Assembly (NCBI GenBank): GCA_965225955.1 | Contig: CBDDBX010000043.1 | Coordinates: 61,187 to 125,186, forward strand | Length of the DNA stretch: 64,000 nt | Reading direction: 5' to 3' | Source: Candidatus Aminicenantia bacterium | Lineage (GTDB): Bacteria > Acidobacteriota > Aminicenantia > UBA2199 | In this document: in pieces, positions 344 to 57,450 of the stretch | Position numbering within the stretch: the first letter of the stretch is position 1 | Layout: every line of letters starts with the position of its first letter | Position numbers and translations under genes: made by a program | Notes under the pieces: model-generated | Seen by the model: the letters and a program-made list of their open reading frames with translations, nothing else | What the model was told of the DNA's origin: nothing | Database searches by the model: none

Positions 344-895
344 TCATAGATTACAACTAAACAGAGCATAGGTTTTCAGCCAGGAATAACCATTCCCGAC
401 ATTCACATCCATTCCTATCTGCAGGCCGGTTTTTCTACTCACATAAAAATCAAAGCCTACTCCTCCACACAGTCCGAATCCTTTTCTACTATCAATTTTT
501 GTACTCCAGGAATTTTCATTTATATGAGATATACGCTCTGACTTAAATTTAGAATATGCCAGGCCCGCCTTCATGAAAAAACTACCCCCCATCTTATATT
601 TCAGAGATGTTCCGATCACCCATGCCTCAGATTTATCTTCTATTTTGCTTATCTGTTCAGCATTTTTTTCTGTAACCGATTGTTCATCTTCGGGGGCAAA
701 AAAATAGTCAAAACTACCAACCACGGATATTTTCTTTGTTAGTTTAACTTCGCTACCCAAAGTTACATTGATATTTTTAAATTTCGAAGCCCCCCAGCCT
801 ATTCCTCCCAGAATGCTGACAGAGTTTTCCTCAGCTTTTAACCCAAAAGCTCCAACAAGCCAGATAGCAATAAATAAAACGATTAACTTTTTCAA
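344..895 (-). CDS. Small outer-membrane beta-barrel protein (OmpA-like beta-barrel domain family), paralog 1
   Basis: 183 aa. N-terminal signal peptide MKKLIVLFIAIWLVGAFGLKA. Alternating hydrophobic beta-strand pattern, GGIGWGAS and NVT motifs shared with the neighbours. TTG start preceded by GGAGGG. Confidence 0.7.
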   Translation of the reverse strand: MKKLIVLFIAIWLVGAFGLKAEENSVSILGGIGWGASKFKNINVTLGSEVKLTKKISVVGSFDYFFAPEDEQSVTEKNAEQISKIEDKSEAWVIGTSLKYKMGGSFFMKAGLAYSKFKSERISHINENSWSTKIDSRKGFGLCGGVGFDFYVSRKTGLQIGMDVNVGNGYSWLKTYALFSCNL

Positions 896-928
896 CTTTC
901 CCTCCTGTTCCTCATTTTATGACTAATT

Positions 929-1468
929 TCAGATGATCCTGACACAGAAATTTGTATAGAATTTCCACCAGGTAGATTGTCCTGCATCATAAACATCTAC
1001 GCCAAACCTTGAGCTCAACCTTTTGCTCAAAGGCAGATCCAGACCTATTCCGGCACTTACTCCAGCTTTTCTCGTTTTTACAATCTCACGATACTCCCTT
1101 TCCGGTTCCTGATACTCTTTTCTATGATATCTGTAAATAAACCCGGCTTTTGCAAAAAACAGCCGGCTAATCCTGTATTTACAAAATCCTCCCAGAGATA
1201 TAGCTTCAGTATCATCTTTCAAAACCACTATATTTCCTGACTGGTGTATCTCCTTACGTACACTGTTATCAGGATCTTTAAAGTAGTCCATTTCCATCAT
1301 TAGAGAGATTTTCCCTGTTAAAACAAGCTCTACCCCTCCTGTTACATTAAGGTTTTTACAATCTCCTGCGCCAAAACCCGCACCTCCATAAAGTTTCAAC
1401 TGAGTTTCTTCTGAACAGAGCACCATACTGGCAGTCAGAAGAAACAGAAAAACAATTAATTTTCTCAA
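929..1468 (-). CDS. Small outer-membrane beta-barrel protein, paralog 2
   Basis: Same family (GGAGFGAG, NVTGG, MEMDYF). The ORF-track start at 1498 is a TTG; the likely true start is the internal TTG at 1466-1468 preceded by AAGGAGG, giving MRKLIVFLFLLTASMVLCS as the signal peptide. Confidence 0.65.
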   Translation of the reverse strand: MRKLIVFLFLLTASMVLCSEETQLKLYGGAGFGAGDCKNLNVTGGVELVLTGKISLMMEMDYFKDPDNSVRKEIHQSGNIVVLKDDTEAISLGGFCKYRISRLFFAKAGFIYRYHRKEYQEPEREYREIVKTRKAGVSAGIGLDLPLSKRLSSRFGVDVYDAGQSTWWKFYTNFCVRII

Positions 1469-1640
1469 TATTTCCTCCTTTAAATTAATTTTCAACAAAT
1501 CAATATCTCATCTCTGGCTGCTGCAGAAAGGTCTATAAAAAGCTGCTTAAATCAGCTATTACTAACCTATCTGAATATTGAAAATCCCCTGCATCCTTTT
1601 AGCAGACAGGTAAAGATGAAAAATGGTTTATGCACGCAGC

Positions 1641-1787
1641 ATGCCAGTTAAAATGCGGCAATAAGTATATTTTATTTACAAAAAAAGGACACTGTGTCAC
1701 ATTTTAAAGTCATACAGTACAGACCATATCCCCTCAGAGTTCAGTTTCTGAGTATAACTTGCTTTATTCATGAAAATGGATAAAAAC
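1641..1787. repeat. Duplicated upstream element of about 150 bp, copy A (upstream of paralog 2)
   Basis: Near-identical (roughly 90%+) to 2488-2646. Contains the palindrome GACACTGTGTC (1688-1698) and a short hairpin. Confidence 0.8.
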
Positions 1788-1853
1788 ACTGAAACCTTTT
1801 AATAAAGGGCAGGAGATAATCCTGCCCCTTAACCATCATATTCTCAGATCACA

Positions 1854-2381
1854 TCATATTATACGAAACCCTATAGTCCCATAGAATTTAAGCCATGAAA
1901 ACATATCTGTTTTGCAGGTATCAACTCCAAACTGTAAATTTGTTTTTTTACCCAAAGGAAAATCAAGCCCTACTCCTCCACTTATTCCAGTATCCTTATA
2001 GGTAGCCGGAATACTCCAGGATTTAGTTCCTGTATCAAATAGATACTCCAGTTTATATCTGGAATAATTCACCCCTGCTTTAACAAAAAAAGGCCCTGCT
2101 AATTTATACTTCAGGTAGAGCCCCAGATAATAGGCATAAGAATCTACATCTCTCCCCTGTACCTTCTTTTCATTATCGGGACTAAAAAAATAATCGAAGC
2201 TGCCAATAACTGAAAACCTCTTCGTTACATTGAGTTCCCCCCCAACTGTTACATTGAAATTTCTAAAATCCGAGGCCCCCAGTCCTATACCACCAAAGAC
2301 CTTAACAACCATATTGTCCGCCTTTAAGCTTCCCCCTGCAAAAAATCCGATAAAAACGAATAGTACCAATAGTTTTTTCAA
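1854..2381 (-). CDS. Small outer-membrane beta-barrel protein, paralog 3
   Basis: 175 aa. Signal peptide MKKLLVLFVFIGFFAGGSLKA. GGIGLGAS, NVTVGG, SFDYFF. TTG start with GGAGGG SD, same start context as paralog 1. Confidence 0.7.
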   Translation of the reverse strand: MKKLLVLFVFIGFFAGGSLKADNMVVKVFGGIGLGASDFRNFNVTVGGELNVTKRFSVIGSFDYFFSPDNEKKVQGRDVDSYAYYLGLYLKYKLAGPFFVKAGVNYSRYKLEYLFDTGTKSWSIPATYKDTGISGGVGLDFPLGKKTNLQFGVDTCKTDMFSWLKFYGTIGFRII

Positions 2382-2689: not shown

Positions 2690-3721
2690 ATGTTAAGGAA
2701 ACTATTAATCGTATCATTAACTCTACTGGCGCCACTTCTTATCTCAGCCAGCGGGATACTGCTTCAGGACATTGTTAATCCCGGAAATATTGTAGTGGGA
2801 AACTCAAATATTTATATAACTCAGGACACAGATGTATTTATCTTTAAAAAAAACACCGGAGAGCTTATTAAAAAGTTCGGCAAACAGGGAGAAGGTCCCG
2901 GAGAATTCAGAAAGAGCCCTGCTCCCTGGATACCAAGCTTAACTATCTATTTAACGCCGGATAACAGACTACTAATCAACAGTATGGGCAAGGTCTCCTT
3001 TTTCACAGCAAGCGGTGAATTTATAAGTGAACATAAAGTTGGTGGGCGACTGGGCAGATTTATGCCTCTTGGTAAAGGTTATATAAAAATGACTATAGAG
3101 AGAGATGGAGATACCAGAGTTATTGCAGCCAATCTTATTGATGCAGACTTTAAAAAGACTTCCCGGCTGTTCAGCACACTCTGGCCTGCTCAGTCAGGAA
3201 AAAAAAGAAACCCAGTCATCATGTCACAGATGACAACTCTTTTCGATAAATATACCTGCGGAAAAGGAGTTGCTCTACCTGATGAGAAAGGTAATTTTCA
3301 CATATTTAATACAGAAGGTAAAAAAATTCTGAATTTCACTCCACCTTATACAAGAATCAAACCTGATAAAGCATTTCAGAACTCTCTGGACAAGTTCTTT
3401 TCTGAAGATCCCAGATACAAACGCCCTTATACTCAGGATAAAAACCGGGGCCTTATAGAACTCCCCTCCAGGCTACCCGAATACCGGGACTACCGAATTG
3501 ACGAAAACAATGTATATGTTATCTCAAACTTCAGAAAAGATGGTAAGTATGAAATGCTGGTTTACTCTCTTAATGGAAAAATGTTGAAAAAAACCTTTAT
3601 TCCTCTTGCTGAAAAAGATCTTTTAAATGTTTTTCCTTTTGATATAAGGGACGGAAAACTTTTTCAGGTTGTTACTGACGACGATGAGGAAGAGTGCAAA
3701 CTTGTAGTTAATAAAATATAG
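2690..3721 (+). CDS. Secreted hypothetical protein, possible beta-propeller (NHL-like GxGxGEF motif)
   Basis: 343 aa. Strong SD AAGGAGG. Signal peptide MLRKLLIVSLTLLAPLLISASG. FGKQGEGPGEF resembles NHL/propeller repeat signatures. No confident family. Confidence 0.55.
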   Translation: MLRKLLIVSLTLLAPLLISASGILLQDIVNPGNIVVGNSNIYITQDTDVFIFKKNTGELIKKFGKQGEGPGEFRKSPAPWIPSLTIYLTPDNRLLINSMGKVSFFTASGEFISEHKVGGRLGRFMPLGKGYIKMTIERDGDTRVIAANLIDADFKKTSRLFSTLWPAQSGKKRNPVIMSQMTTLFDKYTCGKGVALPDEKGNFHIFNTEGKKILNFTPPYTRIKPDKAFQNSLDKFFSEDPRYKRPYTQDKNRGLIELPSRLPEYRDYRIDENNVYVISNFRKDGKYEMLVYSLNGKMLKKTFIPLAEKDLLNVFPFDIRDGKLFQVVTDDDEEECKLVVNKI

Positions 3722-3928: not shown

Positions 3929-5338
3929 ATGATTAACAGATTCAGACTGACAATTGTTTTAAGAATATCACTTATCTTTCTCTTCATTACAGCCGCGGTA
4001 ATTGTATTCTTCAAAACAGATGACTACCTTACTCTGGCTGGAAGCGCAGTCCTCACTTTTCTTGCTGGCTATCAGTGCTACAGACTGATGGTTTTTGTAG
4101 AAAAAACAAACAGAGATCTTGCCAGATTTCTTGAAGCTGTCCGAAATGACGATTTTACCCAGAGTTTCTCTGACAACAATCTTGGCACCTCATTTGAAGA
4201 GCTTAAAAACGCCTTTACAAAGTTAAAAGAGCAGTTCCTTAGCCTCAGATCAGAGAAAGAAGAACACTCAAGATATCTGCAGACAGTCATAAAACATATT
4301 GGCGCCGGAATGATTGCATACAGAGGAGACGGGAAAGTTGAACTTATAAACGTTTCTGCACGAAAGCTTTTTCAGATCTCCCACCTTAAAAACATCAGGT
4401 CCCTTGAAAATATAAGCAGGGAGCTGGTGGAAAAACTGCTGACTATTAAAGCAGGAGAAACTGCTGCTCTGAAGATAGACAGTCCTGAAGGAGAGATGTA
4501 CTTATCAATTAATGCCACTCAGTTTAAACTGAAAAGTGGTTTTTATACCCTGGTTTCAATACAGAACATTAAAGATCAGATTGATATGGAGAACATGTCC
4601 CGGGAACTTGAAATCGCATGGGAAGTACAGAAATCACTTCTTCCCGGAGCACCTCCGTCAATTCCGGGTTACGATATCAGAGGGATCTGTAAACCAGCAA
4701 AAGAGGTAGGAGGAGATTATTACGATTTCATTCCTCTGGGAAATAACAGAACCGCTTTTATAATAGGAGATGTATCAGGGAAAGGCACATCTGCTTCATT
4801 CTACATGACTCTTACCAAAGGATTCATTCAGTCTACTCTCATGGAGGAAAACATCTCTCCCGGAGAGATTCTTAAAAGAGTAAACAGTCTTATGCTCAAT
4901 ACAATTAGTAAACGCTCATTTGTAACTATGTTCATAACTATTCTGGACTGGAAAGCAGGCACAGCAGTATGTGCCAGAGCTGGGCATAACCCGGGCATCT
5001 TTCATTCAGCTACCGGAAGAACAGAACATATAAAACCTGGTGGAATAGCCCTTGGTTTAGCAGGCAAGAAGAGTTTTGATACACCTCTTGAAGAGTACAG
5101 CTTTAAATTTGATATTAACGATCTTTTTGTAATGTATACAGATGGTTTCATAGAAGTAATGAACGATGATAACAATATCGAATTTGGAGAAAAAGGACTG
5201 GAAAAATGTATTGCACGAAGAGGAGATATGACCTCCAGTGATATTGTCAACAGAATCTGCGATGAAGTAGATAAATTCAACAGTTCAAGCGAACAGTATG
5301 ATGATATGACAATGATTTGTATCAGAAGAGTTTCCTGA
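3929..5338 (+). CDS. Membrane-anchored sensor protein with PP2C-type (SpoIIE/RsbU family) serine phosphatase domain
   Basis: 469 aa. N-terminal TM segment, HAMP-like coiled region, PAS-like middle. C-terminal SpoIIE-type motifs GDYYDF and FIIGDVSGKGTSAS, with DGF...D near the end. Confidence 0.8.
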   Translation: MINRFRLTIVLRISLIFLFITAAVIVFFKTDDYLTLAGSAVLTFLAGYQCYRLMVFVEKTNRDLARFLEAVRNDDFTQSFSDNNLGTSFEELKNAFTKLKEQFLSLRSEKEEHSRYLQTVIKHIGAGMIAYRGDGKVELINVSARKLFQISHLKNIRSLENISRELVEKLLTIKAGETAALKIDSPEGEMYLSINATQFKLKSGFYTLVSIQNIKDQIDMENMSRELEIAWEVQKSLLPGAPPSIPGYDIRGICKPAKEVGGDYYDFIPLGNNRTAFIIGDVSGKGTSASFYMTLTKGFIQSTLMEENISPGEILKRVNSLMLNTISKRSFVTMFITILDWKAGTAVCARAGHNPGIFHSATGRTEHIKPGGIALGLAGKKSFDTPLEEYSFKFDINDLFVMYTDGFIEVMNDDNNIEFGEKGLEKCIARRGDMTSSDIVNRICDEVDKFNSSSEQYDDMTMICIRRVS

Positions 5339-5819
5339 ACCCTTTAATTTCAAGAGCCTTTGCTCCCTTTTTGTATATGTACCACTTTTTCACTGTTCTA
5401 AGTTCTGTATCTATACCTCTGTTTTTAAGCAGCTCAACTATATCTTTTCTACCATAAAAAACCGCCCAGTGAAGAGCTGACCAGCCATACTCATCCTGAG
5501 TATTTATCAACGCCGGATACTCTCTCTGTAAATCAAGAGCTCTGAAAAATTCCCCTCTTGATATAAATCCACTATAACCGGATTTAATATCTTCACTACA
5601 AGGCTGAGCATCCTGACTATCATTAAAAAAGAGAGGAGTAACCAGAAGAATAATAGCAAGCATTACCAGACCTCTCTTCCAGATCACACCGGTTTCTGTT
5701 TCTTTTACAGTTCTGCAACTTGTCAGCCTCCTGTTATTACAGTGATCTTCAAGCTCGTAATATATTAAACCACTCTTCTCAAGCTTCCTGAGCCCTTTTT
5801 GTAAACTCACTCCCCCCAA
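5322..5819 (-). CDS. Membrane-anchored ankyrin-repeat protein (last gene of the kinase operon)
   Basis: 165 aa. TM segment LVMLAIILLVTPLFF. Ankyrin repeat GWSALHWAVFYGRKDIVELLKNRGID. Overlaps the PP2C gene stop by 13 bp. Confidence 0.6.
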   Translation of the reverse strand: MGGVSLQKGLRKLEKSGLIYYELEDHCNNRRLTSCRTVKETETGVIWKRGLVMLAIILLVTPLFFNDSQDAQPCSEDIKSGYSGFISRGEFFRALDLQREYPALINTQDEYGWSALHWAVFYGRKDIVELLKNRGIDTELRTVKKWYIYKKGAKALEIKGFRKLF

Positions 5820-6572
5820 TCCTCCAGTACCCCCATAATATAAGAAGCATTATCTGCTTCTTCAGAAGCAACTACTTTCTCTTCTACAGCTTTACTAACA
5901 TCTTTATCCACCAGGATTCCCAGGAGCTCTTTCTGACTACTCATCTGTTCCCAGACGCCATCGGTACAGATAAAAATCGCATCTTTTTCAGAAAGGGGAA
6001 TAGTTGTAATCCTGTTTTTAAGAAGAGTAAGATCTTTCCCGGCTTCATCTTCATTAAAAGCATAACTGAGCAGGTTTTTATAAGGATGGGACGCCAGAGA
6101 ATCCAGAGTTACATCACCACCTCTGTAATACTCAAAAACCACAGAATCATCTTCAGTTATCAAACTAAGATGCCTGCTTCTGTCTCTTGCGACTCTGAAT
6201 TTTTTCAATTTCCAGTTCCAGTCAGTTACCAGATATAAACGGGAATCCCCAATCCAGGTATAAGTCATTCGGAATTTATTCTTATATGGCTCTACACAGG
6301 CAACTACCAGAGCTGCACCAGTATTTTTTACCTTCGCTGACAAGAATCTCTTTTGCTTCTCCAAGGCTATCTGATATAAGACGTTGTGGAGAGATGTTCC
6401 GGTCAAAATTCCTTTCAAAACTCTGAACCACTACATCTACTGCCAACCGCCCGTATCTGGCTCCCCCAACTCCATCGGCTAATATATAGAGATGTCTCCC
6501 ATCTCTCTCCAGAACACGACAAAGATCCTGATTCTCAGATCTGCTACCAATAAAGCTCTTACTCTCAATCAT
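5807..6572 (-). pseudogene. PP2C-family Ser/Thr protein phosphatase with an apparent frameshift (two overlapping reading frames, 6282-6572 and 5807-6418)
   Basis: N-terminal frame carries the ADGVGG PP2C motif (MIESKSF... start at 6572). C-terminal frame carries GDSRLY and DG motifs. Frames switch near 6300-6340, next to a T6 homopolymer. ATGA-type overlap with the kinase stop. Confidence 0.6.
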
Positions 6573-6576
6573 ATGC

Positions 6577-7947
6577 TTACCCTGCCTTAGCTCTTTTAAG
6601 CTGAACCAGACCACCGAAAACAAGGCGTCCGGTAATATCATCTCCTAAACCTTTACAGAGCTCAGAAAACCTGTCTCTGTTTATCTTTAACTCTATATCT
6701 TCTTCGCCAACTATTTCTGCATCTATAAAATCCGGTCCTTCAACTTTAATCTTTATACACCTTACCCCGACATTGAACTTTGCACTGTCATACCTTAATT
6801 TCAGACAGCTATCTGTAAATACTGTTCCCGGGCTGGCATTATACCAGGAGGGTAATGGATAATTTACATCCACCATAAGAGGTAACTTCAGATACCTTTT
6901 CTTATTCAGTTCTTCTACCCTTCTTTCAAACCCTTCTATTAAAGATTTCCCGAAGCCAGAGACTGTCCGGTACTCTCTTAGTTCGGGATTTATAACCAGA
7001 GCTCTCTTTAATACTGAATATATATAATCTGGTAATAACCCCGAAGCAATTTTTGTGAAGTAGTCAGAAAAATAACTCCCCGGCTCTGAAGGTTCAAGAA
7101 GATACTCCTCAGCAGCAGTTTCCCCAAGTATAAATTCAACAGCAATAACTGCCATAGCATATATATCTATAGAAAACTCTTTTCTGTAATCTTCAAACAG
7201 ATATCTTGCAGGATCGCTGTACATAGGAGTGCCTGCAACACTACTTCTGGTATGAGTCAGACAGGCAAGCTTCTCTTTGGCATTCCCAAAATCACCAAAT
7301 ACAAAAGATAATTTCCTACCCCGCTCTACAATAAAAATATTGGCGGGAGAAATATCTCTGTGCACTGTATCTTTATTGTGGATCTTCTCAAGTTTAAACA
7401 ACAGTTCTGAGATTATTTCAGATTTCCTGCTGAACTCTATGCTGCTGGTTCCGTTTGCCTCAAGACCTATAAGGTCCTTAAGAGTTCCTTCAGCAATTTC
7501 CATAAGAATACCGCCACACTCGTGTTCATTATTATCAGAAGTGCAGATAATCTTTCCTGCATAGAAGACCTTAAGAACCATATCATCATCAAGACCTTTT
7601 TCAGTGAGGGAATTTATAATAGATATCTCTTTATTAAGATATGTTGCTGAAGCATCCATCTCCTCTTCTATCTTACCGCTACAGGTAGTAAAGTACTGCT
7701 CAAAACTAAAAGGTACCTTAAGAGCGAATCTGTTACCTTCAGAACAGGTTACTTCGAACACTGTACCAAGCCCACCTTTCCCCAGAAACCCTGTTATTCT
7801 GAAAAGCCTGCCTTCCAGCTTTATACTGGTGCAGCTAACCTCATAACCATCCGGGAAATCCCTCTTTTGTTCTATCTCAAAAGAATCTGAAGACTGGCAG
7901 TCGTTTATGTTCGCTTCGATTGTTCTGCAACTTCTGCAATATTTCAT
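6577..7947 (-). CDS. Eukaryotic-like Ser/Thr protein kinase with N-terminal Cys ribbon and C-terminal domain of unknown function
   Basis: 456 aa. CRSCR at the N-terminus. Kinase motifs GKGGLGTVF, ALK, HRDISPANI, GDFGNA, and AGTPMYSDP (APE-like). About 170 C-terminal residues unassigned. Confidence 0.85.
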   Translation of the reverse strand: MKYCRSCRTIEANINDCQSSDSFEIEQKRDFPDGYEVSCTSIKLEGRLFRITGFLGKGGLGTVFEVTCSEGNRFALKVPFSFEQYFTTCSGKIEEEMDASATYLNKEISIINSLTEKGLDDDMVLKVFYAGKIICTSDNNEHECGGILMEIAEGTLKDLIGLEANGTSSIEFSRKSEIISELLFKLEKIHNKDTVHRDISPANIFIVERGRKLSFVFGDFGNAKEKLACLTHTRSSVAGTPMYSDPARYLFEDYRKEFSIDIYAMAVIAVEFILGETAAEEYLLEPSEPGSYFSDYFTKIASGLLPDYIYSVLKRALVINPELREYRTVSGFGKSLIEGFERRVEELNKKRYLKLPLMVDVNYPLPSWYNASPGTVFTDSCLKLRYDSAKFNVGVRCIKIKVEGPDFIDAEIVGEEDIELKINRDRFSELCKGLGDDITGRLVFGGLVQLKRAKAG

Positions 7948-8516
7948 CAGAAAGATACCCCCAGATATAAAAACCTCTGCCTTAACAGGCGATTGCTTTC
8001 TGATTGAAACTTATAACCGCGAAAAGGCCACTCATATTTATATCCCAGTTGAACATACAGCCTCCTGCTTACCGGAACCCTTACTCTCAGATCCCCATAA
8101 AGTGCCAGCTGGTATATCAGATTGTCTTTAAAATACTCTTCAGTACTACTTTTTTTAAATGGATAAATTATACCGCTCATACCAGCAGAACACTCAAACC
8201 TCACTCTTCCTGCACCAACAGATACAACTTTTCCAAATTCCAGCCCTACACCATCAAGCTGTAAATCTGCTTCTTCTGAATTAACAGCTGAACTCTGACC
8301 TTTTATTCTGTTATAGATGATAGAGATTTCATATCCGTTTTCTGTGAAGATTCCACCTTTGAGTCTGAAACCGCTGAACTTATCTGCAACGGAACTACTA
8401 CCCGAAGAGCTATAATCCCTCAAAGAGCAACTGCTTTTCACTGAAGTAGTTATAGAAGTAAAGACATCCGGCAACCCGATAGCAGGCAAAAGCAGCAGTA
8501 GAATCATCAATCTCAT
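7947..8516 (-). CDS. Putative small outer-membrane beta-barrel protein
   Basis: 189 aa. Signal peptide MRLMILLLLLPAIG. Amphipathic alternating strands. C-terminal YLGVSF with terminal Phe. Overlaps its neighbours by 1-4 bp. Confidence 0.5.
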   Translation of the reverse strand: MRLMILLLLLPAIGLPDVFTSITTSVKSSCSLRDYSSSGSSSVADKFSGFRLKGGIFTENGYEISIIYNRIKGQSSAVNSEEADLQLDGVGLEFGKVVSVGAGRVRFECSAGMSGIIYPFKKSSTEEYFKDNLIYQLALYGDLRVRVPVSRRLYVQLGYKYEWPFRGYKFQSESNRLLRQRFLYLGVSF

Positions 8517-9577
8517 TGAACTGCCTCTGAACTATATTCCAGAAATATTTTTGAAGAAGCATCTGTAATCAACCCCTTAAGTAATCGATTATGCTCCACC
8601 GCATCATCTATTACAACTCTTCTACTCACCTTCCTGACCTTTTTTCTGAAGGATTTAATAAATTCTACAACTCCTTTTACTGATAAACCGGCTCCAAGAA
8701 CCATTGTTGTACCACCAGCACCCTCCATAAAAGCTCTGTTTCCTCCACTGATATTCCTATTATCAAGTCTTCTGTCTATTACAAATCTATTGACTCCAAT
8801 AAGACCGGCCCCCACAATAAAATGTGGCAGAGCCTTACGAAAGAATCTCCTTTTATCAAAATACTTTTCCTGTACTATCTCTGTTTCATACCTGAACTCT
8901 TTTCTGTAACTCCTGCCAGCCAGACTTATCTCTGAAGTTTTCCAGTTAACCAGAATATTATCCGGCATAACTACTCTTCGTCTTACCGGAACATCTCTGT
9001 TAAATTCGATTCTGTCAGTTTTGAACCGGAAATTGATATTCTTCTCAGGCACCTTGAAATGAGGCATCTCAACATTAACAGAGTTGTCTCCTTTCTGCAG
9101 AAAAAAGACCTTTCCCGCAGATCTTCCATCAACAAAAACCTGAAGCTCTGCAGATGCAGTTGTTTTTACCCTGAACCTGAGAACTACTTTTCCTTCATTA
9201 TATGGATATCTGTTACGGTTAAGTTTCACAGATACTTCAGAAGGATAATTTTTCTTCCATGAAACCATAAATTCATGAACTCTTATTCTGCTGATACTAT
9301 CCAGAAAACCCAGTTCCACCTGACCTTTGGTATCCTGAAAATATCTGGTTATACACCTTTTTTCATTTACCTTATCCTCAACCCTGCAGTATAACCATGC
9401 AAGGAGAAGTATCCTGCTTTTATAATCTCTTTCGCGATATTCACCACTTTCTATGAATTTTATATAACCTGAATAATCTTTAACTTTACCCAGATAATCC
9501 CCCGCAGCATCTTTCCAGCTATCAACACTACTTCCATAGCAGCATAATCCCGGAATAAGAAACAACAAAAATCTCAC
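8513..9577 (-). CDS. Secreted hypothetical protein
   Basis: 354 aa. Signal peptide MRFLLFLIPGLCCYGSS. C-proximal Gly-rich hydrophobic stretch and basic tail. No recognisable domain. Confidence 0.5.
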   Translation of the reverse strand: MRFLLFLIPGLCCYGSSVDSWKDAAGDYLGKVKDYSGYIKFIESGEYRERDYKSRILLLAWLYCRVEDKVNEKRCITRYFQDTKGQVELGFLDSISRIRVHEFMVSWKKNYPSEVSVKLNRNRYPYNEGKVVLRFRVKTTASAELQVFVDGRSAGKVFFLQKGDNSVNVEMPHFKVPEKNINFRFKTDRIEFNRDVPVRRRVVMPDNILVNWKTSEISLAGRSYRKEFRYETEIVQEKYFDKRRFFRKALPHFIVGAGLIGVNRFVIDRRLDNRNISGGNRAFMEGAGGTTMVLGAGLSVKGVVEFIKSFRKKVRKVSRRVVIDDAVEHNRLLKGLITDASSKIFLEYSSEAVQ

Positions 9578-9585
9578 AATCCCCC

Positions 9586-10191
9586 CTATAATTTATTAAC
9601 AATAAGATAAAATCCAAGTTTATCTTTAAACTTAACAAGAGTCTCTTCCGATACCGGAGTACTACTCCATCCTCCTCCCTCTTTATAAGCCAGACATAGC
9701 TCTCCATGGCTCTTACTGAGAAGCATTCTGTTAACACCAGTATCTTTTAATCTCTTCAGCCTGTCTACTGAGAGGATATCAAAACCATACCCTTCTCTAT
9801 TACGCAGAAATATTCTGAGAGTACTGAAAGAGTCAAACCCCATCTCTTTAAGATAGACAGGCTCTTCAGATATCCAGCTATTCTTACCTGACTCCCTGCA
9901 CTTTATACCACCTGCAAAAGATCTGACTGGTGACTTTGAAGAGATCACAGTTTTTACAGCAGGTTCAGAAACAGCATCAAAATCCATTTGCCCTTCAGTT
10001 AATCTGCATAATGATTCTGATACTGTACGCCCCACAACCCTGTATCGCCCTCTCTTAATACCCTTCTTAAATACGACCCCTTCCAGTGGAACACTTCCTG
10101 TTACAATAAAGAAATTACCTCTTTTACCGTAAATCTTCCCACCCCACAGACAGGTGGACGAATACAACAGAAGAATCAGAACAACTCTCAT
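9586..10191 (-). CDS. Secreted hypothetical protein
   Basis: 201 aa. Signal peptide MRVVLILLLYSSTCLWG. No recognisable domain. Confidence 0.5.
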   Translation of the reverse strand: MRVVLILLLYSSTCLWGGKIYGKRGNFFIVTGSVPLEGVVFKKGIKRGRYRVVGRTVSESLCRLTEGQMDFDAVSEPAVKTVISSKSPVRSFAGGIKCRESGKNSWISEEPVYLKEMGFDSFSTLRIFLRNREGYGFDILSVDRLKRLKDTGVNRMLLSKSHGELCLAYKEGGGWSSTPVSEETLVKFKDKLGFYLIVNKL

Positions 10192-10194
10192 ACT

Positions 10195-10581
10195 CTATTC
10201 TGTATCAATCACACTTATATGAAAAAACTCTACAAGCTTTCTTACCAGATCACTCTTTCGTACAATATTACGGTATTTAAGATCTCTAAGCATACTGTTA
10301 ATAACTTCAGTATCTTCATGGGAAACTACAATATTAAATGTTTTGGTTGTGGTATTCCGCTCTTTGTCCGGGTGAGAGATGAGAAATTCAGCAAACTTCT
10401 TCTGAAGATCTTCTGAACCATCTATCAACGTGATAACATGATGCAGAACCTCTTCATTGGTTTTACTCCAGACACGTCCTAACTCAGTAAACATTGCTCC
10501 CACTCTCAGGCCCATTGGAAAACCTACCTGTTTTTTTGGTTGTTTAACGTCCATTTGTCCTCCTGAAAAAAACATTAACAT
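10195..10581 (-). CDS. Hypothetical protein (first gene of the kinase operon)
   Basis: 128 aa ORF, 3 bp from the next gene. No recognisable motifs. Confidence 0.45.
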   Translation of the reverse strand: MLMFFSGGQMDVKQPKKQVGFPMGLRVGAMFTELGRVWSKTNEEVLHHVITLIDGSEDLQKKFAEFLISHPDKERNTTTKTFNIVVSHEDTEVINSMLRDLKYRNIVRKSDLVRKLVEFFHISVIDTE

Positions 10582-10846
10582 ATATTAGGATTCTTCTCAA
10601 ACAAAATGCTATTTTATATCCACAATTGTTTCCACCAACATATTACTCACGCAAACTAAAGTTTATCATGCCAAAATATTTTTTTCTATACTATCTACAC
10701 ACTCAACAATTATGACTGTTTTTTTATTCCTGAAACAACAACCTTACTTCTCTTAAAAAAATTGTTTCAATCTTTTCTTGTGAAAAATCTGTTTTTATTC
10801 TATAACAGTAACAAAAACCATTATTGGTAAGAAAAGGGAAAAGAAA

Positions 10847-16390: not shown

Positions 16391-18562
16391 ATGGACAGAA
16401 ACCCATGGCTAGATGACACGTTTAACGTAAGACTGCATGACATAAAAAAAAGAGTTCTTGACGAACATAAAAAATCAAAAGCACCAGAACTTAAATGGTT
16501 TACACCACATGGTGAAGAACATTACAAGAATGTAGAAATGAGATTAATGCAACTATTACCTGAATGTAATGATTTATCAGTAAATGAAAAATTTTTCCTA
16601 TTAACTTCGGCATGGATTCACGATTTGGGAATGATAAAAGGGATTTTAGATGGAGATGAACAACTTGATAGTTATGAAATAAGAGATAAGCACCACATCA
16701 GATCAGAACAATACATAGTTAAAAATCACGAATTCCTAGATATAGAAGAGACCGAAAAAGAAGCTTTTGCAATGTTAGCCAGATACCACAGACGTAGAGA
16801 GTTGATTACACAATGTGAAGAATCAATGACACTTCCTTATCATGGCAACATAAGAATACAGTTATTAGCAGCATACCTCAGACTAGCCGATGCCTTACAC
16901 ATAGATCAAACAAGAGCACCCTTTCAACAATATGCAATTGTTCTTGCGTACAACATTCCAATTAATTCTAAATTACACTGGTTAAGAAGTATGTTTGTGC
17001 TCGGAATATCAATAAATTTAAAAAACAAAGAAATTGTTGTTCAATTAAAATATCCGAATGACATAAAAGAATGGGATCAGGACGAAAGAGTCCTTAATTC
17101 AACTCTTGATAGTATATACGATTCTATTGTTCAGGATCTTGAAGAAGAACTTGCTACTGTTAAAGAGATATTAATAAAGGGCGGTCAGTCTTACATCTTA
17201 TCTATCAGAAAAGAGATAGTAAAAGTGAGATTTGACAAAAGCTTCAAAAGAGATATCAAAACAGTTTTAAATTATTACTATTTATTTGATAATCCAAGTA
17301 GCTCAGCATTATGCCGGTTAGTAATTGAATCAATTAGAGGAATACGAGATGCACACAATGGTAATATAAGGGAATCCATATCCACAATTTCAGATTTCCT
17401 CAACGAGATAAAAAAGAAAATACTTGATACAAGAACATGTCATACTGGCTTAAGTGATTTGGTAAAAAGTGTAGAGGAACATGTAAAAAAGCAAGGTGTT
17501 GAGGGATTGGACAAGAAGTTAGCAAAAGATGAAAAAAAGTTAAACAATGAAAGAAATGGTGTACGTGAAAATGCAAGAGAGTTTTTTGATATATTTCAAA
17601 AAAAGAACCCCAAAAAGCTAGCACAGAATAACAAAGTAAACATATTACTTTATGGTTATAGTGAATTAGTAATTAAATCCCTATGTGGTTTTAGAGATGC
17701 AATTATACAAAAAAAACTTAAAGATAAACTAAATGATAATATAAAAGCTCATAAACTAAACCTTGAACATGAAGCAAATAATAATTTCAGAATTTTTATA
17801 TGCGAAGGTCAACCCAAAAACAAAACAACATGGGGAGGAAAGTATTTATATCATGATGGTTTTAGATATGCTATTTCTTTAGCAGAAAGAAATTTTGAAT
17901 ATATATATATGATAGCTGATGCTACTGCTGGCTCATTAATTGCACGAGCGAATAACAGTTCATTTCCCCCAATAGATTTCATAATGGTAGGAGCTAATGG
18001 ATTTACTGAGAAAGAATTTAAACACTCTGCAGGACACAGTACAATTGCAGCTCTGAAATTTTTACCTAACAATAAAAAAGACTATCCTAAACTTATTCTA
18101 TCAATAATAAATAGTAAACATAATGAATCAGAGGATAAAAAGGAAGATAATAATAAAAATGACCTGAACAATGCTGATGACAGAGAGACAGTTCCTATCG
18201 ATGGCTGGACATTTAAAACCCCTTTTAATGGTGAACCAACAAGAAATAATATATTCGTCACTCAGGATCCAAAATATAAAAAAGATATGGATAACTTCAA
18301 AAATGCAATCGCAATATATAATCCTAGAGAAGATGCTATTCCAATTGATTGGGTAGACATAGTCATTTCAGAAAACGTTTGGCTCAAAAACACGGGTAAG
18401 GAATCATGGGGAGGCAGATATATTGTAGAACAAAAACAATCATCTTCAGAGCCTTATTGCTCTCTTAATAGTTATAGGAAAATACTTTTTTATAGAAATA
18501 AAAAGAGACAAATAACTCTTAGGCACTCTATCCAGCAATCTAGGTTGGTGGCAAGAAACTGA
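16391..18562 (+). CDS. HD-domain phosphohydrolase fused to an IF-2B / MtnA / R15P-isomerase-like (NagB/RpiA-fold) domain; unusual architecture
   Basis: 723 aa, AGGAG SD. N-terminal HD motifs HGEEH, WIHDLGM, KHH, YHRRRE, ADALHID. Lys-rich coiled middle. C-terminal third aligns by eye to the IF-2B family: ILLYGYSELVIKSL (cf. ILTHCNSSTVLKAL), FRIFICEGQP (cf. FRVIVTETRP), IADATAGSLI (cf. ITDSAVGYFM), IDFIMVGANGFTEKEF (cf. VDxVIVGADxIxxNGxVxNK). A further 160 aa are unassigned. Confidence 0.7.
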   Translation: MDRNPWLDDTFNVRLHDIKKRVLDEHKKSKAPELKWFTPHGEEHYKNVEMRLMQLLPECNDLSVNEKFFLLTSAWIHDLGMIKGILDGDEQLDSYEIRDKHHIRSEQYIVKNHEFLDIEETEKEAFAMLARYHRRRELITQCEESMTLPYHGNIRIQLLAAYLRLADALHIDQTRAPFQQYAIVLAYNIPINSKLHWLRSMFVLGISINLKNKEIVVQLKYPNDIKEWDQDERVLNSTLDSIYDSIVQDLEEELATVKEILIKGGQSYILSIRKEIVKVRFDKSFKRDIKTVLNYYYLFDNPSSSALCRLVIESIRGIRDAHNGNIRESISTISDFLNEIKKKILDTRTCHTGLSDLVKSVEEHVKKQGVEGLDKKLAKDEKKLNNERNGVRENAREFFDIFQKKNPKKLAQNNKVNILLYGYSELVIKSLCGFRDAIIQKKLKDKLNDNIKAHKLNLEHEANNNFRIFICEGQPKNKTTWGGKYLYHDGFRYAISLAERNFEYIYMIADATAGSLIARANNSSFPPIDFIMVGANGFTEKEFKHSAGHSTIAALKFLPNNKKDYPKLILSIINSKHNESEDKKEDNNKNDLNNADDRETVPIDGWTFKTPFNGEPTRNNIFVTQDPKYKKDMDNFKNAIAIYNPREDAIPIDWVDIVISENVWLKNTGKESWGGRYIVEQKQSSSEPYCSLNSYRKILFYRNKKRQITLRHSIQQSRLVARN

Positions 18563-48212: not shown

Positions 48213-48587
48213 CTATGCATCCTCTCCCAGAAGGTTTTTTACACATTTAAGGAATTCATCATTTTTGAAAGGCTTACCAAGAGTAGCATCGGCTCCCAGC
48301 ATCTTAGCAAGAGGCAGATAGGAATCAGGCCCCATTCTGCCACCACCGGAAATAGCTATCACAGGCATATTACATCCCCCCCGCCTTATTTCCTGGATAG
48401 TTTCAATCCCCTCTTTTCCGGGCATGATTATATCGGTAACGATAAGATCATAACTATTGCTGCCTACCATATTAAGACCAGCAGCACCATCTTCTGTACT
48501 ATCAACACTATACCCCGACTTCCTTAAAAAACGGGTTAACATAGCTCTTAAAATATCGTCATCTTCAATTATCAATATCTTTTTCAC
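48213..48587 (-). CDS. Single-domain response regulator (CheY-like receiver)
   Basis: 124 aa. DD...D...T...K receiver residues (IIEDDD, VTDIIMPG, KPF). Confidence 0.8.
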   Translation of the reverse strand: MKKILIIEDDDILRAMLTRFLRKSGYSVDSTEDGAAGLNMVGSNSYDLIVTDIIMPGKEGIETIQEIRRGGCNMPVIAISGGGRMGPDSYLPLAKMLGADATLGKPFKNDEFLKCVKNLLGEDA

Positions 48588-49734
48588 TATTAATAACCTC
48601 CCAAATTTTACGTCCCATCTCCTGTCTGGTGAAAGGTTTATTTAACACTCCCCTTATTCCTGACCCTGCAATTTTCCCGCCAACAATATCACTGCTGAAC
48701 CCTGTACTCAATATAACAGGAAGATCTGATCTGATTTTCAAAGCCGCTACTGCCAGTTCAGGTCCGGTCATATCAGGCATTGTATGATCAGTAATAAGAA
48801 GAACAAATTCATCAGCTCTCTCCTTAAGTATATCAAGAGCTTCCAGACTGCTGCCTGTACCCACAGCATCGTATCCAAGCATTTCCAGAATACCACTACC
48901 AGTTTTTACAATCAACTCGTCATCATCAACAAGTAAAACAGTACCCTCTCCGGTAAATTCAACCTCCTTCTGAAGAGTCACAGGAACTTCAGCCCGTTTA
49001 CGGCCTGCTTCCGGCAGGAGAATTCTGAAAGTAGATCCCTGTCCATCAGCACTACTCACCTGAATGTTTCCTCCACATTTCTCAACAATCCCGTATACCA
49101 CTGACAAACCCATTCCTACTCCCTGCCCAACCTCTTTGGTAGTAAAGAATGGCTCGAAAATTTTCTCCTCCAGATCTTCAGATATTCCTGTTCCACTATC
49201 TGCCACTTCAATAACTATATAAGAACCCGGCTCAACTACTCCTCCTACCTGCCCTGACTCTTCTGACACAAGTCTCTTTCTGAACACCTTTACAGTCAGC
49301 TCACCACCACCATCCATTGCTGACACACCATTTGCAATCAGGTTCATCAGAACTTCATGTACATAAGCTGAATTAAAAAGTACCGGACACTTCTCACCAG
49401 CAATATCCAGCCGACTCTTTATATCAGAAGGAAGAGATAAGCTGATGAGTTCAAACGCCTCTTTAACTACCGGAACAATATCAAGTACCTCTGGTTCTAT
49501 ATTTTCACCTCTGCTGAAAGTCAGAATCTGCTTAATCAGCAACCTGGCACGTTCTCCCGCCCGCATAACCATTCTGAGATTCTCTGCAACCTCACTATCC
49601 TGTTCAACCTCATCAAGGGACATCTCTATAAATCCTGACATTCCACCAAGTACATTGTTAAAATCGTGGGCAATTCCTCCTGCCAGTACCCCTACAGCCT
49701 GCATTTTCTGTGCCTGGCGTGCCTGCTTCTCCAT
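48565..49734 (-). CDS. Hybrid histidine kinase core (HisKA + HATPase_c + receiver); 3' part of a decayed sensor gene
   Basis: 389 aa. H-box IAHDFNN. N, G1 (DSGTGI) and G2 boxes. C-terminal receiver (LLVDDDE...DHTMPDM). Confidence 0.75.
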
Positions 49735-51642
49735 AACTCTGGATTCTGTGAGATCAATAGCAACACCTCCAACAAACGACTTCCATCAGGCATTATCAGA
49801 GGAAATTTAATATCCCGCAGAACAATTACTCTATCTCCATCATCTACTTCATATTCTACTTCTTCATAATCAGATCCATTGATAATCCGCTGTTCGGCTT
49901 CCAAAGGACTTCCTGCCAGCTCATTATTCAGAAGATCTGCCTCTTCCACTTTACGGAATTTATCAAACCCCGGAAACTGAAGGGCCCTCTTGTTTCTGAA
50001 CAGATATTCCAGCTTTTCATCTTTTATATAGGCAAAAACAGGAATATTGCCCATAAATGCAGCAAACTGTGTTTTACTCTTCTCAAGAGCCTCCTCCACT
50101 AACTTCTGATCGGTTACATCAACTGCCATACAATCAACACCCCGGAGTTCATCTCCATCATCAAATACAGGAAGGTGATAATGCTCTACCCATATCTGTT
50201 TCCCATCTTTCCGAATCCACCTTACCCTTATGGGCTTCCGGGTCTCTATTTCACCACTTAGTATCCGCCCCATTAATTTCCGGTTTTCAGGTAGAGTGAT
50301 TCTTATGCCGAGAGCCGATCACTATAGAACTCTTCCGCTCCATATCCGGTGATATCCATCACTGTAGAGTTAATAAAAACATATGTACTCTTTTCAGGAT
50401 CATATTTGTATATCATAGCAGGTGAGTTTTCTGTCAATCTCTTATACTTCCGTTCGCTCTCCTCAAGCGCGAGAGCAGCCCTCTTCTTCTCTGTAATATC
50501 AAGAGATGTCCCCTGTACAGAATATAGACAACCATCTACAATCGTTGCTGTTGAGTTGTAATCACCCAGACTCTATCTCCTTTTCTGTTAACCCTTTCTG
50601 TTTCCATGTTCTCTATGGCAAATCCGGCTTCGTACTGCATTTTCATTATTTGCCCGAAAGTTTCACTGTTTTCCTGCATCAACTCAAAAAGATATTGTCC
50701 CACAACCTCGTTAGCACGATCATACCCAAGGATGAGAGCATAGGAGTCATTGCACTCCTCAAGATACAGATTCTCTTTAACCCATATAGTAGTATCTTCA
50801 AGGGAAAGCCCCAGAGGCATAGGCTTTCTCATCTTAAAAAAGAACAGCATTACCAGGCTGTCTTTTATAAACCTGTAATATCGTCTGTCACTTACTTCTG
50901 CTTTATGACTGGCATCTTCCCGACGACGGATCTGGGTGCCCAGCAGCTTATAAAAAACAAAAAAGCCTATATATCCTATAAACAGAATTGCTATGTAAGA
51001 TAGAATAAATGAGCTGACTCTGTCACTGTGAATTCTGAAATATCTGCCCATTGGAACAGATACACTGATCCCCCTCTGATATCCCCAACTTTATATCCCT
51101 GCATAGAATGGCACTTAAGGCACCCCTCTTCTACAAACATAGGCTCCATAAATCTTAAGTAGATCTTACTCCCGATCTTCTCAACTACACTACTTTCAGC
51201 CTTACCTTCCCGGAACTCCATAAGACTCTTTTTCTCCCAGGTATCAGGTATATTTACAGGATTTATCGGGTTAAGACTTGTAACATGGCCTTTGACACCA
51301 AGGGTTTTAAACCGATCTCATGAACCTGCCGTGTCATATATGCCGGATTAATTAAAGTATATTTTCTGCCTTTTACAGAGATAATATCTCTCTCTTCTAC
51401 TTTGAGATAGGGATTAGGGATACCTTTATCTGAAACAGGAACATATAAACCCCCATGCATTGAGGCCCACCTTCTGTACTGAAGGTCTTTATTGTAACCT
51501 GCTCTGGCCTGCTCAAGTGCAAGCATCCTGACATCTTCCTCATCTGCTTAACATTGATCAGAAATGCTCCAATCAGAATAAGTGTAAAGAAGCTTATCAG
51601 CCAGATAAAAATTTGCCTTACTTTTTTAATATCACTGCTCAT
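49692..51642 (-). pseudogene. Sensor region of the histidine kinase broken into at least 5 frame fragments (TM anchor, heme-c CxxCH sensor domain, 2 PAS-like domains)
   Basis: Same-strand fragments 51397-51642, 51263-51526, 50991-51221 (CLKCH), 50536-51051 and 49692-50273 lie in different frames, with an unread gap at 50274-50535. Confidence 0.55.
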
Positions 51643-51813
51643 TACTTCAGCCTGCCAAAGCTATAGCTATACTATATAATAGATAACGAATTTAATCTCA
51701 TTTCATCATAAATTTATCAGACTCCGGCATTCCGGGCTGATTTTATATCAGCCAATTCATTTCAAAGTGCTGCAATCCATCAGAAACCTGAATATTGACG
51801 GCTCTGAAAAAAA

Positions 51814-52457: not shown

Positions 52458-52563
52458 TCAACCATAATTGAACCGGTACGGTTCTGGGAATACTTCTCAA
52501 GAGCCTTCTGCTGAGTATCCAGTACCTTCTGGCGGAACACAGAATCCGCAACAAGTCTGTCAA

Positions 52564-53214: not shown

Positions 53215-53355
53215 TCATATATATATGATTATATGTGTGTATATATATATACATATATATATAATATAAATCTGTAATATATATATAAATGTATATATAT
53301 ATGTATATACACATATACGTACGTATATGTGTATTCCGTTATATTTATATACAAT
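53215..53355. repeat. TA/TG-rich simple repeats at the start of the eukaryote-like segment
   Basis: (TATATG)/(TA)n-type low-complexity sequence. Confidence 0.8.
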
Positions 53356-53914: not shown

Positions 53915-54044
53915 ACCGATTGCCGGATTGCCGGATTGCCAGCAGTCCGGCAGGTGACGTACTGTCCCTTGCATCGATTGGTTGGATCGATTGAATCGAG
54001 AACTGGAAAATGCCGGCTGCGGCTGCTGCGGCTGCGGCTGCTGT
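53915..54044. repeat. Cluster of short tandem repeats: (GATTGCCG)x3, (ATCGATTG)x2, (GCTGCG/GCTGCT)n
   Basis: Read directly from the sequence. Confidence 0.7.
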
Positions 54045-56483: not shown

Positions 56484-57066
<583 letters not shown>

Positions 57067-57403: not shown

Positions 57404-57450
57404 CAATGGGAAATCCATGGGAAAATCCATGGGAAAATCATCATCTATGG
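57404..57450. repeat. 12-bp tandem repeat CCATGGGAAAAT x about 3
   Basis: Read directly. Confidence 0.7.

Follow-up and report, generated by a model that had tools for sequence, protein, structure and literature searches.

TagQRST-PpkA-PppA-Fha1 is a signalling pathway of Pseudomonas aeruginosa in which outer-membrane (OM), periplasmic, and inner-membrane (IM) components feed a Hanks-type serine/threonine (Ser/Thr) kinase that is opposed by a PP2C phosphatase. The pathway senses perturbation of the envelope and sets a precedent for an envelope-to-Hanks-kinase route (PMC7817224). Here, we describe a gene cassette on the minus strand, from position 10581 to position 5322, of a 64,000-nucleotide (nt) stretch of DNA, called the window throughout, from a Candidatus Aminicenantia bacterium (GenBank assembly GCA_965225955.1, contig CBDDBX010000043.1, positions 61,187 to 125,186). 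In order of transcription, the cassette encodes a small protein predicted to bind DNA through a tandem ribbon-helix-helix (RHH) fold, exported proteins of 201 and 354 amino acids (aa), a small putative OM beta-barrel of 189 aa, a soluble Hanks-type Ser/Thr kinase, a PP2C-type Ser/Thr phosphatase whose reading frame is broken in the window, and a membrane-anchored ankyrin protein. By analogy, the P. aeruginosa pathway appears to be the closest described system in functional logic. As developed below, the locus belongs to a conserved cassette, and it is probable that this cassette contains a split receptor kinase.

As in the TagQRST-PpkA pathway, a PP2C phosphatase is encoded alongside the kinase, and candidate envelope components would feed that kinase. 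PpkA itself is a transmembrane (TM) kinase, whereas the cassette kinase is soluble and its TM and ectodomain part is carried by the separate ankyrin protein. The candidate output also differs, being a predicted RHH DNA-binding protein. Unlike the pathway of P. aeruginosa, neither the cassette nor the scanned open reading frames (ORFs) of the window gave a match to type VI secretion system, FHA, ABC-type, or Tag families, and family searches detected no homologs of TagQ, TagR, TagS, or TagT.

Adjacent genes for a Hanks-type kinase and a PP2C phosphatase, constituting a reversible Ser/Thr phosphorylation switch, are also a feature of the PknB/Stk1 and Stp1/PstP pairs. In NCBIfam, the kinase scores 44.9 against PknB_PASTA_kin (NF033483; cutoff 450), through its kinase domain only, and the score against Stp1_PP2C_phos is 49.3 (cutoff 230). 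Unlike PASTA kinases, the cassette kinase has neither PASTA domains nor a TM helix, and unlike the PknB/Stp1 pairs, most members of the cassette have no PP2C gene. PknS of Xanthomonas citri is reported to be a Hanks-type kinase acting on the sigma factor EcfK (PMC13147305). It offers a precedent for a membrane-associated Hanks kinase that signals straight to a transcription regulator; it differs from the cassette in being a single transmembrane protein whose target is an extracytoplasmic function (ECF) sigma factor, and the cassette encodes no sigma factor. A similar logic is found in FecA-FecR-FecI, which runs from an OM barrel through a periplasm-spanning IM protein to a cytoplasmic transcription regulator. 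Unlike FecA-FecR-FecI, the cassette has no TonB-dependent transducer, anti-sigma factor, or ECF sigma factor, and transmission by Ser/Thr phosphorylation is proposed instead.

When the cassette products were searched against Pfam, NCBIfam, and PADLOC, only generic kinase, PP2C, and ankyrin matches were returned, and in a full-text literature search, no paper brought ankyrin and 'threonine kinase' together with Aminicenantes. The cassette thus falls outside the Tag pathway and the PASTA kinase/Stp1 pairs, and it is not a known kinase-based defence system. It is a variation on the known kinase/PP2C signalling theme and does not represent a new type of system.

Gene order and conservation of the cassette

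The cassette consists of seven consecutive frames that run unbroken on the minus strand. The small gene and the 201-aa gene are separated by 3 nt, the 201-aa and 354-aa genes by 8 nt, and the kinase and PP2C genes by 4 nt; the 354-aa and 189-aa genes overlap by 4 nt (ATGA), the 189-aa and kinase genes by 1 nt (TGATG), and the PP2C and ankyrin genes by 4 nt (GTGA). A preliminary description of this DNA had proposed a packed, same-strand unit of seven genes. The packing and the overlaps hold in outline, with the PP2C gene now seen to be split and the starts of the first gene and the ankyrin gene revised. Upstream of the first gene, a 292-nt gap (10555-10846, minus strand) separates the cassette from a divergent Rieske-ferredoxin gene. 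This gap is the probable site of the promoter and may possibly hold an operator. The blocks that it shares with a related species (L166) include TTTGAGAA.AATCCTAATATATGTTA, which lies immediately 5' of the AGGAGG ribosome-binding site. A sigma-54 promoter upstream was considered and rejected, as the GG and GC elements of TGGCAT...TTTGC are spaced by about 18 nt versus the roughly 10 nt expected.

Related loci were gathered by an exhaustive phmmer search with the 354-aa protein, by a search for the family of the small protein, and by pattern scans of genome and metagenome collections. The scans with patterns from the kinase alignment returned 160 loci, most of which are unrelated kinases. The presence or absence of each cassette gene at each locus was recorded in a profile-based table. 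The preliminary description had allowed that this gene order might be found nowhere else, but it is conserved in related genomes: the order of small RHH gene, 201-aa gene, 354-aa gene, 189-aa barrel gene, kinase gene, and TM-ankyrin gene recurs in seven other loci, from Candidatus Aminicenantes and from metagenomes, at protein identities of 23-33%. This long form comprises the window, L002, L006, L086, L168, L170, and L172, together with L005, which is partial. In L002, a JGI contig, the products in order are proteins of 113, 240, 369, and 271 aa, the kinase, and the ankyrin protein, and BLASTP comparison with the window gives E-values of 3e-7 (201/240 aa), 2e-37 (354/369 aa), 3e-14 (189/271 aa), 3e-52 (kinase), and 6e-13 (ankyrin protein). 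L006 is a Candidatus Aminicenantes metagenome-assembled genome (MAG).

Four further arrangements are seen. A short form, with the small gene, a 201-like gene, the kinase gene, and the ankyrin gene, is found in L087 and L173, in L008 with no detected small gene, and as a partial copy in L088. In a fusion form (L003, L004, L009), the kinase, a TM helix, and the ankyrin segment are joined in one protein, and L009 has an ORF of the small-protein family beside it. A form that has the small, 201-like, and 354-like genes and no kinase is represented by L167, which lies in the complete Aminicenantes genome CP070627, and L007 carries a kinase of the family with none of the cassette partners detected. 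In that Aminicenantes MAG (L007, 537-1916), a second Ser/Thr kinase gene lies directly 5' of the family kinase; read by eye, the C-terminal part of its product resembles a Zn-ribbon plus an FHA-like domain. The short-form locus L008 is flanked (736-2381 and 5089-6105) by genes resembling ParB/ParA and by a gene resembling that of a CRISPR-associated RAMP protein, also read by eye, and these suggest that at least one copy of the cassette is plasmid-borne.

In L166, the small protein is 73% identical to that of the window and the chromosomal neighbourhood upstream of the cassette is common to both; this contig stops just past the small gene. At the other end of the cassette, one to three OMP_b-brl_2 genes, encoding small outer-membrane proteins (OMPs), lie directly 3' of the ankyrin gene in L002, L005, L006, L086, L168, L170, and L172, that is, in seven of the seven long-form relatives with downstream sequence. 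A serpin gene also stands beside the cassette in three long-form relatives (L002, 7773-9604; L168, 14912-16342; L170, 6525-7832), with a META-domain gene after the serpin in two of the three, and no serpin was found among the scanned ORFs of the window. These loci define a real, conserved, and apparently undescribed cassette of about a dozen uncultured Acidobacteriota/Aminicenantes genomes.

A candidate split receptor kinase and its partners

The kinase (6577-7947, minus strand, 456 aa) is composed of a Cys ribbon, a kinase domain, and a C-terminal domain. The kinase domain is matched by Pfam Pkinase (PF00069) over residues 52-278 with 58.6 bits versus a cutoff of 31.7 and an E-value of 8.5e-16. 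Its catalytic motifs, GKGGLGTV (Gly-rich loop), FALK (catalytic Lys, K77), VHRD (HRD Asp, within HRDISPAN), and GDFG (DFG), are conserved in an 11-member alignment (A10). The N-terminal Cys ribbon of the preliminary description is present with three of the four Cys residues conserved in the family (C4, C7, and C17), the fourth being Ser here. The C-terminal domain, earlier given as 170 aa, comes to about 110-120 aa in the alignment. This domain aligns throughout the family, is absent from the kinase-TM-ankyrin fusions, and has no significant Pfam or PDB sequence match. As described previously, the kinase carries no PASTA or FHA domain, no such Pfam match being found. No TM helix was detected in it either, and its sole hydrophobic peak falls within the kinase domain. 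The protein is a near-orphan: when 5.8 billion proteins were searched by word index, the closest relative, which is encoded on L002, was 30% identical.

The ankyrin protein (5322-5810, minus strand) starts with a roughly 40-aa N-terminal peptide; its single TM helix spans about residues 45-63 of the 165-aa ORF and leads into an ankyrin ectodomain. Residues 104-141 match Ank_2 (PF12796) with 28.1 versus a cutoff of 27.3 and Ank (PF00023) with 26.3 versus 21.1. The protein had been described as TM-anchored with a single ankyrin repeat; one hydrophobic helix and one clear repeat are indeed present, but relatives have two repeats, and the first of these is degenerate here. The N-terminal peptide is rich in Lys and Arg and is conserved in orthologs, reading LRKLEKSGLI in the window and KVFKxLSKKGM in relatives. 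Alignment of this peptide leaves two candidate starts, GTG 5810, which makes the GTGA overlap, and TTG 5819. The first is valid with either length of a neighbouring G run that varies between contigs (G5 or G6, see below), and the TTG 5819 start is not. On the basis of these sequence comparisons, we take GTG 5810, which precedes the first internal ATG, as the start.

The relation between these two proteins is indicated by the natural fusions. The fusion proteins P0003 and P0004 run from the kinase domain straight into a single TM helix and on to the matching ankyrin segment (GWTPLHWA...). The ankyrin segment of the fusions should be extracytoplasmic because the kinase must be cytoplasmic and a single TM helix lies between them. 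By the Rosetta-stone principle, the fusions speak for a split receptor kinase made up of the soluble kinase and the TM-ankyrin protein, with the ankyrin domain of the latter as a periplasmic ectodomain. The fusions (P0003, P0004, and that of L009) have neither the C-terminal domain of the kinase nor the N-terminal peptide of the ankyrin protein, and because both are absent where the two proteins are covalently joined, they are candidates for the non-covalent joint.

Three proteins encoded between the small gene and the kinase gene have envelope features. The products of 201, 354, and 189 aa bear signal-peptide-like N-terminal segments when their sequences are read, as the preliminary description had stated, and a hydropathy scan flagged such a segment only in the 189-aa product. 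The exported 201-aa protein (9586-10191, minus strand) begins with the signal-like segment MRVVLILLLYSSTCLWG, and its homologs are found in the matching position in L002, L006, L086, L087, L008, L167, L168, L170, L172, L173, and L088. It and the small protein are the most constant partners of the cassette. Neither a Pfam search at lenient E-values nor a PDB sequence-profile search gave a significant match for the 201-aa family.

The exported 354-aa protein (8513-9577, minus strand) could also start three codons further on, at a TTG, and this shorter version is the 351-aa call P0024. Its family is rare, with 36 representatives, mostly full-length at about 340-390 aa, among the 1.84 billion proteins searched exhaustively with phmmer; a word-indexed homolog search with the same protein returned only the self-match. 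An AlphaFold2 model built from 24 sequences (pLDDT 87.3) shows a helical N-terminal domain (20-110), an Ig-like beta-sandwich (strands in 115-240), a hairpin of two helices of about 30 residues each (242-271 and 278-308), and a C-terminal strand-helix-strand. In a Foldseek search against the PDB, this model had no whole-fold match (TMq at most 0.24), and several of the partial matches are Ig-like or beta-sandwich folds. The protein has no Pfam match.

The 189-aa protein (7947-8516, minus strand) is a candidate small OM beta-barrel with a signal-like N-terminus. It scores 19.8 bits with Pfam OMP_b-brl (PF13505), under the cutoff of 28.7, and the match of its L168 ortholog to this family is only faint. 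It ends in GVSF, and the family keeps a G[VI][ST]F ending with a terminal Phe. Orthologs occupy the matching slot in L002, L005, L006, L086, L168, L170, and L172, and a PDB sequence-profile search with the barrel family gave nothing significant. The preliminary description had left room for the upstream proteins to belong to an unrelated pathway; none of them has a significant Pfam, NCBIfam, PADLOC, or PDB sequence match that would assign it to one.

The small cytoplasmic protein is encoded by the first gene of the cassette (10195-10554, minus strand). Its start is most likely ATG 10554, behind the AGGAGG site, which gives 119 aa in place of the 128 aa reported earlier, and the gene call on an independent contig of the same organism (L001) is likewise 119 aa. 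The protein lies beyond the reach of BLAST from its relatives, and a profile was needed to detect it: with a profile built from four orthologs, its ORF ranks first among 464 six-frame ORFs of the window (E 0.0027; runner-up, E 1.1). The family search collected 59 proteins, whose source names, where given, are Candidatus Aminicenantes or Acidobacteriota. In an AlphaFold2 model from 37 sequences (pLDDT 82.9, pTM 0.76), a strand (8-13) is followed by two helices (15-28 and 33-46), a linker helix (48-60), a second strand (72-77), and two further helices (79-91 and 100-117). The top 11 Foldseek matches in the PDB are chains E, F, and G, of about 102-120 residues, from entries of the F-plasmid relaxosome, with probabilities up to 0.99, TM-scores of 0.43-0.50, and identities of 10-16%; the next are DndE and the tandem-RHH protein AvtR. 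Chains E, F, and G are taken to be three copies of TraY, as their lengths agree with what has been published on that structure. TraY of the F plasmid is described as monomeric, with a complete RHH dimer fold in the single polypeptide (PMC12117103). The 119-aa protein is accordingly modelled as resembling TraY in that one chain of some 120 aa holds two strand-helix-helix units, and it differs from TraY in its extra linker helix, in the lack of a relaxosome context, and in the low identity given above. What had been listed as an unknown protein gave no significant sequence-profile match, and it is now predicted from the model to be a single-chain tandem RHH DNA-binding protein, which would make it the candidate output of the cassette.

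The remaining gene is that of the PP2C-type phosphatase (5807-6572, minus strand), which the preliminary description had taken as one intact gene. In the window, its domain is spread over two frames that join at an A6 run (6324-6329; T6 on the plus strand), where a +1 frameshift occurs. The upstream half (6282-6572) carries the motif ADGVGG, and the downstream half (5807-6418) carries GDSRLY, CTDGVWE, and DNAS. Across 12,178 bp, only two single-base homopolymer differences separate the window from the independent metagenome contig of this organism (L001; ENA ERZ25073805, 1.06x coverage). One is at this site, where L001 has A5 and thereby an intact PP2C of 263 aa with a PF13672 match over the whole domain, at residues 7-216 (36.8 bits versus a cutoff of 24), and the motifs RSENQD, ADGVGG, GDSR, DGVWE, and DNAS. 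The other, G5 in L001 versus G6 in the window at 5812-5817, lies beside the PP2C stop. In L173, an Acidobacteriota MAG, a PP2C of 265 aa is encoded exactly between the kinase and ankyrin genes, and with it the idea that PP2C is unique to the window was dropped. The PP2C proteins of L001 and L173 are 30% identical (E 1.6e-29), and because their alignment is collinear through the site of the frameshift, A5 is the functional state. Among about 13 loci, only the window and L173 have PP2C in the cassette slot; PP2C is an optional component of the cassette.

The A6 run in the window is either a sequencing or assembly error or a population variant. Ten of the 100 homopolymer runs of at least 5 nt in the overlap of the window and L001 fall within the PP2C gene; if indels strike such runs uniformly, the chance that both fall in this gene is about 0.01, an estimate confounded by the position of both indels within 552 nt of the L001 contig end. 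Technical indels are plausible because at least one further gene of the window is split, that of a PAS/histidine kinase at 48565-50273. A programmed frameshift at the A6 site was rejected because the independent contig simply has A5; the event would be a +1 shift on GGT AAA AAA T, which is no known slippery context. That a PP2C "reset" is toggled by the A5 or A6 length of the homopolymer, as the placement of both contig differences in this one gene could suggest, is less likely than the strongest reading given below.

Proposed signalling route and its rivals

We tentatively propose, at somewhat less than an even chance, that this is a conserved signalling cassette of Acidobacteriota/Aminicenantes-type diderms that relays information from the envelope to DNA. 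In this scheme, the soluble kinase would dock, probably via its C-terminal domain, on the cytoplasmic N-terminal peptide of the TM-ankyrin protein, and the two would act jointly as a split receptor kinase with the periplasmic ankyrin module as ectodomain. The ectodomain would read an envelope assembly that is made up of, or reported on by, the 189-aa barrel, the 201-aa protein, and the 354-aa protein with a membrane-associated hairpin. The activated kinase would then phosphorylate a cytoplasmic target. The best candidate here is the tandem RHH protein, be it as the substrate or as the regulator by which expression of the cassette is set; control by this protein may extend to the small OMP genes usually found 3' of the cassette. 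PP2C, where present, would reverse the phosphorylation. A stronger version, in which the cassette represents a previously undescribed class of receptor Ser/Thr kinase that is split, coupled to an envelope assembly, and signals directly to a tandem RHH protein, as a phosphorylation-based trans-envelope counterpart confined to Acidobacteriota/Aminicenantes, is doubtful.

The proposal of an envelope-to-DNA relay draws on the tight packing and fixed order of the genes, the short forms, the PP2C of L173, the fusions, the kinase motifs, the predicted RHH fold, the envelope features of the partners, and the downstream OMP_b-brl_2 genes. Several observations weigh against it. In L167, the RHH, 201-like, and 354-like genes are followed by a gene for a TPR protein, and no kinase or ankyrin gene is found in the 10 kb downstream; L087 and L173 have kinase and ankyrin genes and lack the 354-aa and 189-aa genes; and no cassette partner was detected beside the kinase of L007. 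The parts of the cassette are thus separable. Scans with consensus promoters and terminators gave nothing beyond chance level. The RHH assignment is model-based, with a Foldseek E-value of about 0.02 in addition to the modest TM-scores, and Pfam RHH families gave no match in five members of the small-protein family at E-values up to 10. A PDB sequence-profile search with the small-protein profile also returned nothing significant, and as no sequence profile backs it, the assignment is a prediction at the level of the fold. A near-invariant Thr of that family is Val in the window protein, so that no conserved phospho-acceptor can be named. In the hairpin of the 354-aa protein, only the first helix passes the hydropathy threshold, and both flanks are basic in alignment A4, so that no one topology is indicated. 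Finally, the catalytic-loop Lys of canonical Ser/Thr kinases (HRDxKxxN) is replaced by Ser (HRDISPxN). This Ser is found in 10 of the 11 members of A10, L087 having Ala, and the pattern [LTV]VHRDISP[AH] occurs in many genome contigs, mostly of Myxococcota; as the pattern recurs so widely, the Ser is a trait of a subfamily and is no proof of inactivity.

The separability of the parts would also follow if the cassette were two independent neighbours, an envelope module autoregulated by the RHH protein and containing the 201-aa, 354-aa, and 189-aa proteins and the downstream OMPs, and a separate pair of kinase and ankyrin protein, with or without PP2C, whose inputs and targets are unrelated. RHH proteins encoded by first genes are commonly autorepressors of their operons, and several loci fit this reading: L167 has the RHH, 201-like, 354-like, and TPR genes and no kinase, the 354-aa and 189-aa genes are both missing beside the kinase and ankyrin genes of L087, L173, and L008, and the kinase of L007 stands without detected partners. 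However, the kinase has the 201-like and RHH genes beside it whether the form is long or short, and even the fusion locus L009 still has its adjoining ORF of the small-protein family. The TGATG stop/start overlap between the 189-aa barrel and kinase genes spans the supposed border of the two modules, and the order has been maintained over very deep divergence. We regard two independent modules, the main rival, as unlikely on this evidence. A conflict or defence system, anti-phage or toxin-antitoxin-like, in which the kinase would play the effector part known from Stk2, PD-T4-6, and MADS Mad6, with an antitoxin-like regulator in the RHH protein, is suggested by the best PADLOC/NCBIfam matches of the kinase, which are to PD-T4-6, mad6, and Stk2 (E 1e-12 to 1e-17), and by the rare and patchy distribution of the family. 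In addition, L008 lies beside ParA/ParB genes and a gene that, read by eye, resembles a CRISPR-associated RAMP protein, and L167 is preceded by a PIN_3/DUF6364 pair resembling a toxin-antitoxin. These matches are nevertheless limited to the generic kinase domain, with 59.8 bits versus a cutoff of 460 for mad6 and 26.3 versus 990 for PglW (BREX), and the partner genes of these families are absent. The other cassette proteins have no PADLOC match save weak PP2C and ankyrin matches to candidate systems, and the cassettes of the window and L166 share one chromosomal housekeeping neighbourhood. Exported proteins and an OM barrel are also atypical of known kinase defence systems, and we consider a defence role improbable.

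Most improbable of the explanations weighed here is that the cassette is a mobile-element remnant or accessory in which the TraY-like tandem RHH protein is a DNA-processing accessory and not a transcription factor. The top structural matches of that protein, the relaxosome chains taken to be TraY, point in this direction, as do the plasmid-borne appearance of L008 and a type IV secretion system (T4SS) coupling-protein gene about 4 kb downstream in L173. Against it, the cassette has no relaxase, integrase, or T4SS gene next to it in the window, nor in most of its relatives, the chromosomal position is common to the window and L166, and RHH folds are mostly those of transcription factors (PMC12117103, citing Schreiter and Drennan 2007). 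The preliminary description had linked secreted proteins to a kinase, phosphatases, and an ankyrin protein in one module; in the reading preferred here, a conserved cassette that relays envelope information through a split receptor kinase, the co-inheritance of exported proteins, kinase, and membrane ankyrin protein is retained, and the phosphatases fall away as constant parts, PP2C being optional and broken in the window and the SpoIIE-type phosphatase described below being probably incidental.

Flanking sequence and wider significance

A membrane phosphatase of the SpoIIE/RsbU type (3929-5338, plus strand; Pfam SpoIIE, E 1.4e-39) converges on the end of the cassette, as had been noted before, and the 3' end of its gene overlaps the ankyrin gene, the last of the cassette, by 17 nt. 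Its proposed role as a companion of the module is not borne out, since no SpoIIE gene adjoins the cassette in any related locus checked; the only SpoIIE seen near relatives belongs, as one domain, to a hybrid histidine kinase encoded some 5 kb upstream in L167. The convergent phosphatase is probably an incidental neighbour that lies outside the cassette. Beyond it lies a plus-strand gene for a beta-propeller protein (2690-3721, DUF5128-like), and these two plus-strand genes sit between the cassette and three paralogous genes for small OMP beta-barrels of 183, 189, and 175 aa (344-2381, minus strand). Two of the three match Pfam OMP_b-brl (E 3e-9 to 3e-4), and the mutual identity of all three is 32-45%. 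Two of them are marginally similar to an OMP of L172 (E 0.003-0.005). Orthology with the downstream OMPs of the relatives was not adopted at so marginal a similarity, and any link of the three genes with the OMP array found 3' of the ankyrin gene in relatives, of which they may be the counterpart, is weak.

Other parts of the window were surveyed as well. Between 14466 and 18707, a segment of about 4.2 kb has a GC content of 0.29-0.33 and holds a gene for an HD-CE domain protein (16391-18562) together with small unassigned ORFs; no alignment with the syntenic part of L166 was obtained for it, and it may thus be an insertion. A multi-domain sensor kinase on the minus strand (48565-51221) appears fragmented: a PAS ORF (49692-50273) and a HisKA-HATPase-REC ORF (48565-49734) overlap in different frames, which join near 49765-49775, and ORFs at 50536-51221 resemble further pieces of a sensor kinase. 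As this gene is fragmented, the contig carries indels or pseudogenes beyond PP2C. From 51000 to 64000, the density of ORFs is low, the GC content rises to 0.44-0.48, and long microsatellites occur, namely (ACATACAG)n/(TACA)n at 56505-57064, (TA)n at 61688-62018 and 62222-62354, and (AT)n at 53217-53317. This part looks non-bacterial or chimeric; a bacterial contig may have been joined to DNA of a host or another eukaryote, or the contig may be misassembled. Searches of the window for rRNA, tRNA, and Rfam families were negative.

What most bacterial Hanks-type kinases respond to, and how they are connected to gene expression, is obscure, and the cassette is a compact, testable case that offers defined envelope partners, a fusion that points to the membrane partner of the kinase, and a candidate DNA-binding output. 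Three protein families that have no Pfam assignment (201, 354, and 189 aa) and one tandem RHH family are defined by it, in a phylum, Aminicenantes/Acidobacteriota, whose members are known here from metagenome assemblies only. Should the model prove false, a well-delimited and conserved gene neighbourhood would still be useful for annotation. If it is true, periplasmic ankyrin repeats would join the known sensor domains of bacterial receptor kinases.

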